Shown: piece by piece, positions 57,018-58,528 of the stretch | Position numbering within the stretch: position 1 is the stretch's first letter | Layout of the letters: the number at the start of each line of letters is the position of its first letter | Assembly: GCF_044324875.1 (NCBI RefSeq) | Contig: NZ_CP172185.1 | Length of the DNA stretch: 64,000 nt | Reading direction: 5' to 3' (one strand) | Source of the DNA: Escherichia coli | GTDB lineage: Bacteria > Pseudomonadota > Gammaproteobacteria > Enterobacterales > Enterobacteriaceae | Program-made: the position numbers and the translations under genes | The notes under the pieces: generated by a model | What the model saw: the letters and a program-made list of their open reading frames with translations, nothing else | Database searches by the model: none | Told to the model about the DNA's origin: nothing

Positions 57018-57230
57018 TTGTCCCGTAAAATGACAGGAATTGTCAAAACCTTTGATCGCAAAAGCGGCAAAGGATTCATTATCCCCTCCGACGGTCGTAA
57101 AAAAGTCCAGGTCCATATTTCCGCATTCACTCCCCGCGACGCAGAAGTGCTTATACCAGGATTACGTGTGGAATTTTGCCGCGTAAATGGCCTGCGAGGA
57201 CCAACAGCGGCAAATGTTTATTTGTCTTGA
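57018..57230 (+). CDS. cspH: Cold-shock-like protein CspH (TTG start)
   Basis: (TTG)[37 protein letters not shown]...[10 protein letters not shown]; frame and stop at 57228-57230 verified by hand. Confidence 0.9.
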
Positions 57231-58528
57231 TGGAGAGCGCACGCCGGTATGCGTGCTTCATTCACGATTTGCGTAAAACCTGCCAACGAACACATGCCCT
57301 GCGCATTTCGCTCTTCACATCCTGCCAGGGTCAGTTTCACCTCTCCGGGCGGCGTATTTAATGACAGCGGCGTTTTATCACGCATCTGCTGTAAAGTCTG
57401 GAAGACCAGCGAAACCTGAATCCACTGGCTGTTATCGCTTAGCCGACGCCAGCGTTCAAACACCAGTTCCCCCCCTGGCGGCGTGTTATCCGGCTGACCT
57501 GGAAGCGTCCAGTTGAGCTCCAGTGCGCCGCCGAGATTTGCCAGATTAGTATCGTGTCCGGCGATAAACAGCACTGAAGTGGGTAATGTTACACCATACG
57601 CCTGTTTTTGCGGTGGATGGGGCGTCAACGCTGTCATGATCAAATCCAACAACGGGGTGGCGCGGCTGCGGGCAACCTCTGGCGTGCGTTGTAGCAAATA
57701 AAACTGCGCGTTATGCAAACTTAGCAACGTGTTCCACTGGTGTGAATCGGTGATCCTTCCCCACCCCGGCTCCGGCATTCCCTGTGCTTGTTGCAGGAGA
57801 AATATTTCCGTCAGCATTGATGCGAGGCTTACCGCACCGGTTAATGAGACATTGTCGGCGCTCACCTTGAGTTCCGATGGTAATGCCTGCGTTAATGAAC
57901 AGCTTTTGTCCTGTTTCTCACGGTTAAGGCACAAGTTTGATTGCGGGAAATTAAGCACCCGTTCCAGTTCGCGAAACGCCGTTTGCCGATGCCCGGTAAA
58001 GTCAGCAATTGACCCTCCTGCCCTGCTGAGGATCGCGTCAGTCACGTTCGCGTTATCCAGTTGGCAAACGCCAGTTTTTAGAGGATTAAATAACGGATCG
58101 GGACTGGACGTATCTGCCTGGGTATGTACGGTTATTGCACAGTCAGGTGCCAGCCCGGCGGCGAAGGCTTCGCCTGTTTTACGGGTACGCTCGTCGACAT
58201 CAGCAATAATCGCGACCTGACCAGACTGCGGGCAGCCCTTTTTCGCCAGCAATCCATCGGCTACCAGACGCTGGCGTTGGTAATGTCCGAGATAGGCGAT
58301 TAGCTCACCACCGCGCGGTGTCAGCCATCCCAGTTTTACCGGCCATGTTGGCCATGCGTCTGGGGTGACATCCTGCATCAGTTGCGTGGCCTTGGTTGGG
58401 GCACGCACACCATGACGACTGACAATCACCACACTTTCCAGCTTCAGCTCCGGCTCACTCTGAGCGAATGCAGATTGCGGGGTGAACGGAATCAGAAGAG
58501 ATAAGAATGGGATCAAGATCGCTTTCAT
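57218..58528 (-). CDS. appA: Periplasmic phytase / pH 2.5 acid phosphatase AppA, with altered C-terminus
   Basis: [45 protein letters not shown]...; ends ...[10 protein letters not shown] (K-12 ends IPACSL as recalled); stop TAA is complement of 57218-57220, overlapping cspH 3' end. Confidence 0.9.

Follow-up and report, generated by a model that had tools for sequence, protein, structure and literature searches.

Two convergent genes of Escherichia coli, cspH and appA, meet end to end in the genome considered here, and the question raised by this locus is whether a block of genes known from K-12 has been deleted from between them or whether the junction has another origin. The window, that is, the whole stretch of DNA analysed, comprises 64,000 nt (64 kb) of contig NZ_CP172185.1. 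An earlier note made from this sequence had observed that the two genes overlap by 13 bp, that the gfc/etk block of K-12 is missing and that the C-terminus of AppA is changed, and this observation is correct; the deletion that it read from these facts is what has to be weighed. Three states of the locus are distinguished: S0, in which the genes are adjacent with a short spacer; S1, in which a gene cassette lies between them; and S2, the 13-nt overlap found in the window (Table 1).

Table 1. Features of the cspH-appA junction and its surroundings, in window positions.
Feature	Position	Strand	Description	Basis
cspH	57018..57230	+	Intact 70-aa cold-shock-like protein, end NVYLS-stop	ORF list and sequence
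appA	57218..58528	-	Periplasmic phytase/acid phosphatase, 436 aa (414 mature), start MKAIL...	
Tail-to-tail overlap of cspH and appA, 13 nt, TTATTTGTCTTGA	57218..57230	.		ORF list and sequence
Extra appA codons CAT CAA GAC AAA TAA (HQDK-stop)	57218..57232	-	None in K-12 AppA	
appA codons GCT CTC (Ala-Leu) after Cys408	57233..57238	-		Junction comparison with S0 alleles
Cys408 codon TGC	57239..57241	-	Final residue in common with K-12 AppA	
cbdX	58608-58700	-	Upstream operon context of appA	
appB	58713-59849	-	Upstream operon context of appA	
appC	59861-61405	-	Upstream operon context of appA	

The shared sequence TTATTTGTCTTGA reads as Leu-Ser-stop of cspH on the plus strand and as part of a His codon, Gln-Asp-Lys and the stop of appA on the minus strand, the HQDK-stop codons of appA being antisense to the 3′ end of cspH. 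The cspH gene starts with TTG and stops with TGA at 57228-57230, and its coordinates are those of RefSeq cspH in locus L001. The mechanical reading frame of appA extends to an upstream ATG at 58558. Its upstream context of cbdX, appB and appC keeps its synteny in all Escherichia loci examined, and the Cys408 codon is the point at which homology with cassette-bearing alleles restarts.

Both genes look intact, as judged from their sequences. Residues 23-432 of AppA align end to end with the structures 1dkl and 7z1j (E about 1e-278), which stop at ...ACSL. The protein carries the motifs of its family (PF00328), namely RHGVRAP (RHGxRxP) at mature position 16 and HD at 303, and its eight cysteines (77, 108, 133, 178, 188, 382, 391 and 408) occupy the positions of K-12-type AppA; the 1DKL paper reportedly describes a four-disulfide pattern in this enzyme. 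Cys408 directly precedes the divergent tail, and the HQDK tail itself, being short and hydrophilic, is probably functionally neutral. CspH (PF00313) shares 69 of its 70 residues, the TTG start and the NVYLS-stop end with CspH of L001, L003 and L009. Its residue 29 is Lys in place of the Glu of WP_000087763.1 (DGRKKVQV vs DGRKEVQV), the form of CspH in the annotation of all eight E. coli genomes examined, S1 and S2 alike, and this E29K exchange also sets the window apart from strains CFT073 and 042. Elsewhere among the AppA proteins, that of O157 is longer by two residues inserted directly behind the signal peptide (QSEPEPELK vs QSEPELK; L009 15500-15605) and thus has 434 aa. A 317-bp contig assigned to Nocardioides antri (NZ_VUJW01000157.1, L008) encodes a protein 100% identical to E. 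coli AppA 25-129; in this actinobacterial draft assembly it is almost certainly a contaminant from E. coli.

The gene order that the earlier note gives for K-12, with etk, etp and the gfc genes between appA and cspH, holds in a K-12-type genome (L003) and in O157 (L009), where the gap measures 8.3 kb and contains (IS1 or gfcA)-gfcBCDE-etp-etk. Peleg et al. (2005) are said to have identified this interval of K-12 and O157 as the group 4 capsule operon. Compared with the window, O157 has an extra 8,276 bp with seven genes, a REP element and an 11-bp hairpin terminator. The AppA proteins of K-12 and O157 end in ...RIPACSL-stop, four codons before the stop of the window AppA, which bears out the reported difference at the C-terminus, and their cspH stops with TAA, whereas that of the window stops with TGA. 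The flanking genes are 96-99% identical to those of the window, and AppA and CspH are orthologous. Searches of the 64-kb window by blastn and tblastn with the O157 cassette and its proteins returned no homologue of gfc, etp or etk; the seven genes of a group 4 capsule locus do not stand between cspH and appA, which abut. Two places in the window (23505-23537 and 45707-45734) give short matches of about 30 nt (88-93%) to the REP-like element of the etk-appA interval and are ordinary REP copies. In L003 (FAM21845, a cheese isolate), IS1 lies between cspH and gfcB and gfcA is missing, as in K-12 (14364-15061), and the promoter region of the capsule operon is therefore disrupted.

The overlap is not peculiar to this strain. 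A survey of E. coli genomes, which the earlier note had proposed, found the junction in about 1,670 of 5,426 complete genomes: it was contiguous in 1,674 with a 451-nt query, and a 63-nt query confined to the junction matched 1,662, of which 518 were exact. The etk gene was found in 3,742 of the same 5,426 genomes, and the overlap junction and etk are complementary and essentially partition the species. RefSeq annotates a 1,311-nt appA overlapping cspH by the same 13 bp in 118UI, CFT073 (B2) and 042 (D). The phylogroup F references IAI39 and SMS-3-5 each contain a large inversion. The junction also occurs in 28 metagenome contigs, all with 24-nt spacing; a pattern scan of metagenomes for S0-type spacings (27-44 nt) gave no match, and a wider scan gave the S2 spacing only. 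The K-12-type genome does not have the overlap, so the possibility that K-12 itself shares it can be dismissed.

The overlap occurs in identical register in L001, L004-L007, L019, L020, CFT073 and 042, and five of these (L004-L007 and L019) are other, divergent Escherichia lineages. Four of the five were found by an AppA scan of species-representative genomes: SCPM-O-B-8794, labelled E. coli (L004), strain E69 (L005), E. whittamii (L006) and Escherichia sp. E1V33 (L007). Because their flanks are 83-96% identical to the window (as are those of L019), compared with 96-99% for K-12-type and O157 E. coli, the L004-L007 loci are true outgroups to E. coli. That their junctions were recently imported from E. 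coli is unlikely, given that they diverge in proportion. The AppA proteins of L004-L007 end in C-S/T-L-H/Y-Q-D-K, and tail variants include HQER (L020) and YQDK (L004 and L019); CFT073 uses GAT for the Asp codon. The overlap allele is thus an ancient, common natural variant of the locus.

The closest described counterparts are the loci of CFT073 (NC_004431) and 042 (NC_017626), which have the same gene order, the 1,311-nt appA, the 13-nt overlap and no gfc/etk, and which show no structural difference from the window. Identity to the window is 98.7% over about 18 kb for 042, whose junction agrees with it over the bases compared, and 97.4% for CFT073, whose junction differs at two bases (GAT for GAC and one further on). 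Reference genomes already carry the overlap arrangement in their annotation, and the difference in capsule gene content has been published; our literature search found the phylogroup distribution of G4C and no paper describing the junction or its polarity. With respect to the strain itself, the best match to window 40000-64000 among the 5,426 complete E. coli genomes is 98.9% (GN25, from a night heron). While appB and appC are 100% identical to those of 118UI, torS is only 97.6% identical. Either complete genomes include few that come close to this strain, or the region has a mosaic make-up. The torS gene (window 51895-54759) is an intact reading frame here and is frameshifted in RefSeq in 118UI, HS-02 and CFT073.

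The cassette found in S1 alleles moves as a unit, to judge from its occurrence elsewhere: its seven genes are found together between dcuSR and dsbD-cutA in Citrobacter freundii and between ligB and yicC-rph in Enterobacter hormaechei. The C. freundii copy is followed by an extra Glycos_transf_4 (WecA-like) gene (L011 15961-16971) that the E. coli and Enterobacter copies do not have. Terminal repeats were not found in L009:5700-14600, none of the seven genes encodes an integrase or recombinase, and the GC content of 50.1% shows no anomaly against 50-53% in the flanks; without repeats or a recombinase, the junction does not have the form of an excision scar left by a mobile element or genomic island. 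Relative to O157, the cassette is 98-99.5% identical in K-12-type genomes, 85-93.5% in the cryptic-clade genome L014 and 81-93% in E. albertii. Since this divergence tracks that of the species, the cassette-bearing allele is old and not a recent import. The interval between etk and appA varies more freely, with 119 nt and one REP-like element in E. coli (L009 14182-14300), 167 nt and a different REP-like sequence in E. albertii (L013 11300-11466), and only 41 nt, the hairpin alone, in L014 (11300-11340); the REP elements were gained after the arrival of the cassette.

Placing the three states on the phylogeny suggests which form of AppA is the older. S1 is carried by K-12-type E. coli, O157, E. 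albertii (L013) and L014. In E. albertii the whole cassette sits at the K-12 site and AppA ends in CSL-stop. L014 has the cassette at the same site, whereas L019, of the same species, shows the overlap; identity between these two genomes is 99.8% in appA and 100% over cspH plus 480 nt. S0 occurs in L015 and L016 (12-nt spacer, AppA ending CGL-stop, 77% AppA identity) and in L018 (8-nt spacer, CSL-stop, 79%), lineages known from three short Logan contigs only, in which appB-cbdX-appA is followed directly by convergent cspH with no overlap. Their AppA proteins fall into clusters made up of Logan sequences, and AppB clusters with Escherichia and Enterobacter. In an appA tree whose rooting depends on a Kosakonia sequence (61% identical), the L015 and L018 lineages branch off before E. 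albertii, the cryptic clades and E. coli, with identities of 74-77% for S0 lineages against at least 80.5% within the crown. Kosakonia AppA, from an unrelated locus, ends in CGL-stop. Because L015, L018 and Kosakonia all end in C-G/S-L-stop, the K-12 end ...C-S-L-stop is probably the older one, and the window has the form of a stop-loss convergent overlap, its relatives L015, L016 and L018 being non-overlapping with an earlier AppA stop. A reading of the overlap as nothing more than the original empty site was dropped, as E. albertii and L014 carry the cassette there and more distant AppA proteins end in CSL- or CGL-stop.

The junction sequences themselves, written in the orientation of cspH, are short enough to be compared base by base. 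S0a (L018) reads TAT CTA TCT TAA AGAGTGCA TTA CAA ACT GCA and S0b (L015) reads TAT CTT TCC TGA ATGAAGAGAGCG TTA CAA GCC GCA. The S1 alleles of K-12-type E. coli, O157, E. albertii and L014 read ...TCT TAA, then the cassette, then TTTTTT(A/G)TGCA (T/C)TA (C/T)AA ACT GCA. S2 comes in two types. Type 2 comprises the window (TTG TCT TGA TGG AGAGCGCA), L020 (CTC TCT TGA TGG AGAGCGCA), L007 (TGA TGG AGAGAGCA) and L004 (TGA TAG AGAGTGCA), and type 1 comprises L005 (TGA TG TAAACT ACA), L006 (TGA TG TAAGCT ACA) and L019 (TGA TA TAAACT GCA). The AGAGTGCA of L004 agrees with the L018 spacer at 8 of 8 positions, and the window equals L015 minus 1+2+10 nt, with zero substitutions from the cspH stop to the appA Pro codon. 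The GCT CTC codons of the window match the short spacer of the cassette-free basal alleles, where K-12 has AGT TTG. They appear to derive from the former appA-cspH spacer (S0: CGCTCTCTT / TGCACTCT) and not from the ancestral Ser/Gly-Leu codons. The product that S0b predicts, CALHQER-stop, is observed in E. coli L020. S1 alleles keep only the ends of the spacer, with TGCAC beside appA in all three lineages and CAT(A) beside cspH in K-12-type genomes and L014 but not in E. albertii.

We therefore favour, at a probability of roughly 0.6, a history in which S2 arose from S0 by a micro-deletion of about 12-13 nt that removed the appA stop, and in which the cassette of K-12 was inserted at that spacer. 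The ancestral S0 locus would have had appA (ending Cys-Ser/Gly-Leu-stop) and cspH converging on a spacer of 8-12 nt. The last four appA codons and the spacer would form a 12-nt quasi-repeat, TGC AGT TTG TAA / TGC ACT CTT CAT, with 9 of 12 positions shared between its units in L018. Slippage or a similar event would have dropped about one such unit, taking away the appA stop and keeping the frame, an early crossover giving type 2 (NCT CTC) and a late one type 1 (AGY TTA); the colinearity of the two types may be due to these early and late crossovers within the same repeat. Translation of appA would then continue across what had been the spacer (Ala/Ser/Thr-Leu-His/Tyr) and the antisense of the last cspH codons to the next TAA, lengthening AppA by four residues and producing the 13-nt overlap. 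In a separate event, the 8.3-kb gfcABCDE-etp-etk block would have entered the same spacer, bringing its own hairpin terminator and producing the K-12 arrangement. What was observed are the three states and where they occur, the sequences of the junctions and the intactness of both genes; from these we infer the direction of change and the slippage mechanism. Of the earlier claim that a deletion junction lies in the last appA codons, the scar is thus probably real, but it is probably one of about 12-13 nt, not of 8 kb, and it is ancient.

How much weight this history can bear depends on what else could produce the same junction. A recent deletion of a K-12-like gfc-etk block in this strain or clone is what comparison with K-12 alone would suggest, yet the junction recurs base for base in about 31% of complete E. 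coli genomes, spans at least B2 and D and five other Escherichia lineages, and is not the sequence obtained by joining the K-12 flanks. Nothing speaks for the loss of the block through a collapsed or misjoined assembly, although the unrelated assembly of HS-02 does have junk sequence at this spot; the same junction is found in hundreds of independent complete assemblies as well as in the metagenome contigs, and the cassette has no flanking repeats that would cause a collapse. Because the junction is so widespread across genomes, RefSeq and metagenomes, both explanations are excluded, and neither retains any appreciable probability. The HS-02 assembly (NZ_CP172818.1, L002) was considered as an intermediate because it has 233 extra bases, and it was set aside: at about 3240-3490, some 233 GC-rich low-complexity bases replace the junction and the 3′ end of appA, which RefSeq records as a pseudogene, and this looks like an assembly or polishing artefact and not an intermediate allele.

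A more serious competitor, which we hold to be possible while doubting it, is that the cassette was lost in one ancient deletion (S1 to S2). The crown ancestor of Escherichia would have had gfc-etk between the two genes, and a deletion beginning just beyond the cspH stop and reaching the appA stop codon would have run appA into the antisense of cspH, the resulting allele then being inherited and exchanged among lineages by homologous recombination. The micro-deletion history has to accommodate E. albertii, which branches below the cryptic clades and has the cassette at this site; since it does, and since cassette divergence is proportional to species distance in E. albertii and L014, S1 dates back at least to the crown group, and simple parsimony, applied to the species tree, permits S0 to S1 to S2. 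The type-1 allele of L019 is, moreover, colinear with L014 minus the stretch between two TA dinucleotides, the two otherwise differing in no more than four synonymous positions, all within the final three codons of cspH, and an ancestral CSL-stop means that S2 did lose a stop codon. Against the loss of the cassette, joining the flanks of any sampled S1 allele predicts an AppA ending in ...CSLY-stop or a 27-residue extension, neither of which is the observed S2 sequence, and the cspH stop is TAA in all S1 alleles but TGA in all S2 alleles, as in S0b. After the cspH stop, window-type S2 has GAGAGC/AGAGTGCA, which matches the S0 spacers and is in neither S1 flank, an argument for S0 to S2 that spans only 6-10 nucleotides. 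Two further coincidences would be needed, as the breakpoints would have to fall within 0-2 nt of both stop codons. Whichever history holds, the event is ancient and the allele widespread. It is also conceivable, though rather improbable, that the S1 and S2 junction haplotypes (cspH TAA vs TGA) form a trans-species polymorphism that predates the split of E. coli from the cryptic clades, and possibly that from E. albertii, and still segregates in at least two species, to which a coupling of appA and cspH by antisense read-through might add.

The two arrangements also differ in how transcription could end. In S1, a hairpin of 11 bp, bounded by A6 and T6, lies in the etk-appA gap together with a REP element (z about -5). 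At the S2 junction no consensus terminator site was found, and local hairpins are no better than shuffles (z -1.5 to -1.75). As S2 has no intergenic terminator, the convergent appA and cspH transcripts probably end within the coding region of the partner gene, going by the sequence, and any regulatory consequence of this terminator-less overlap is speculation.

In summary, K-12 is probably the derived form at this locus, by insertion, and the overlap is a standard allele of about a third of E. coli, among them CFT073 and 042, which serve as reference pathogens; a 436-aa AppA and a 13-nt overlap should not be flagged in annotation as errors or pseudogenes. With spacer, insertion and overlap all observable, the locus is a small, clean example of the birth of a convergent overlap. 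Surveys of bacterial overlapping genes, such as that by Fukuda et al. (2003), are said to describe convergent overlaps that arise when a stop codon is lost and the gene elongates at its 3′ end. The appA-cspH junction resembles such stop-loss overlaps in general, in that it is a tail-to-tail overlap of a few codons with one partner extended and both reading frames intact, and is unlike them in that the precursor S0 and the insertion state S1 are still visible in relatives.

For the biology of the organism, the absence of the export genes means that no group 4 (O-antigen) capsule can come from this locus. G4C has been associated with intestinal pathotypes, and its genes are present in only 8% of B2 strains (PMC8281228); the lack of capsule genes here fits both that link and that rarity. 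If the two haplotypes were indeed a trans-species polymorphism, this would point to balancing selection acting over long periods on the export of the O-antigen capsule, through phage, immunity or niche.
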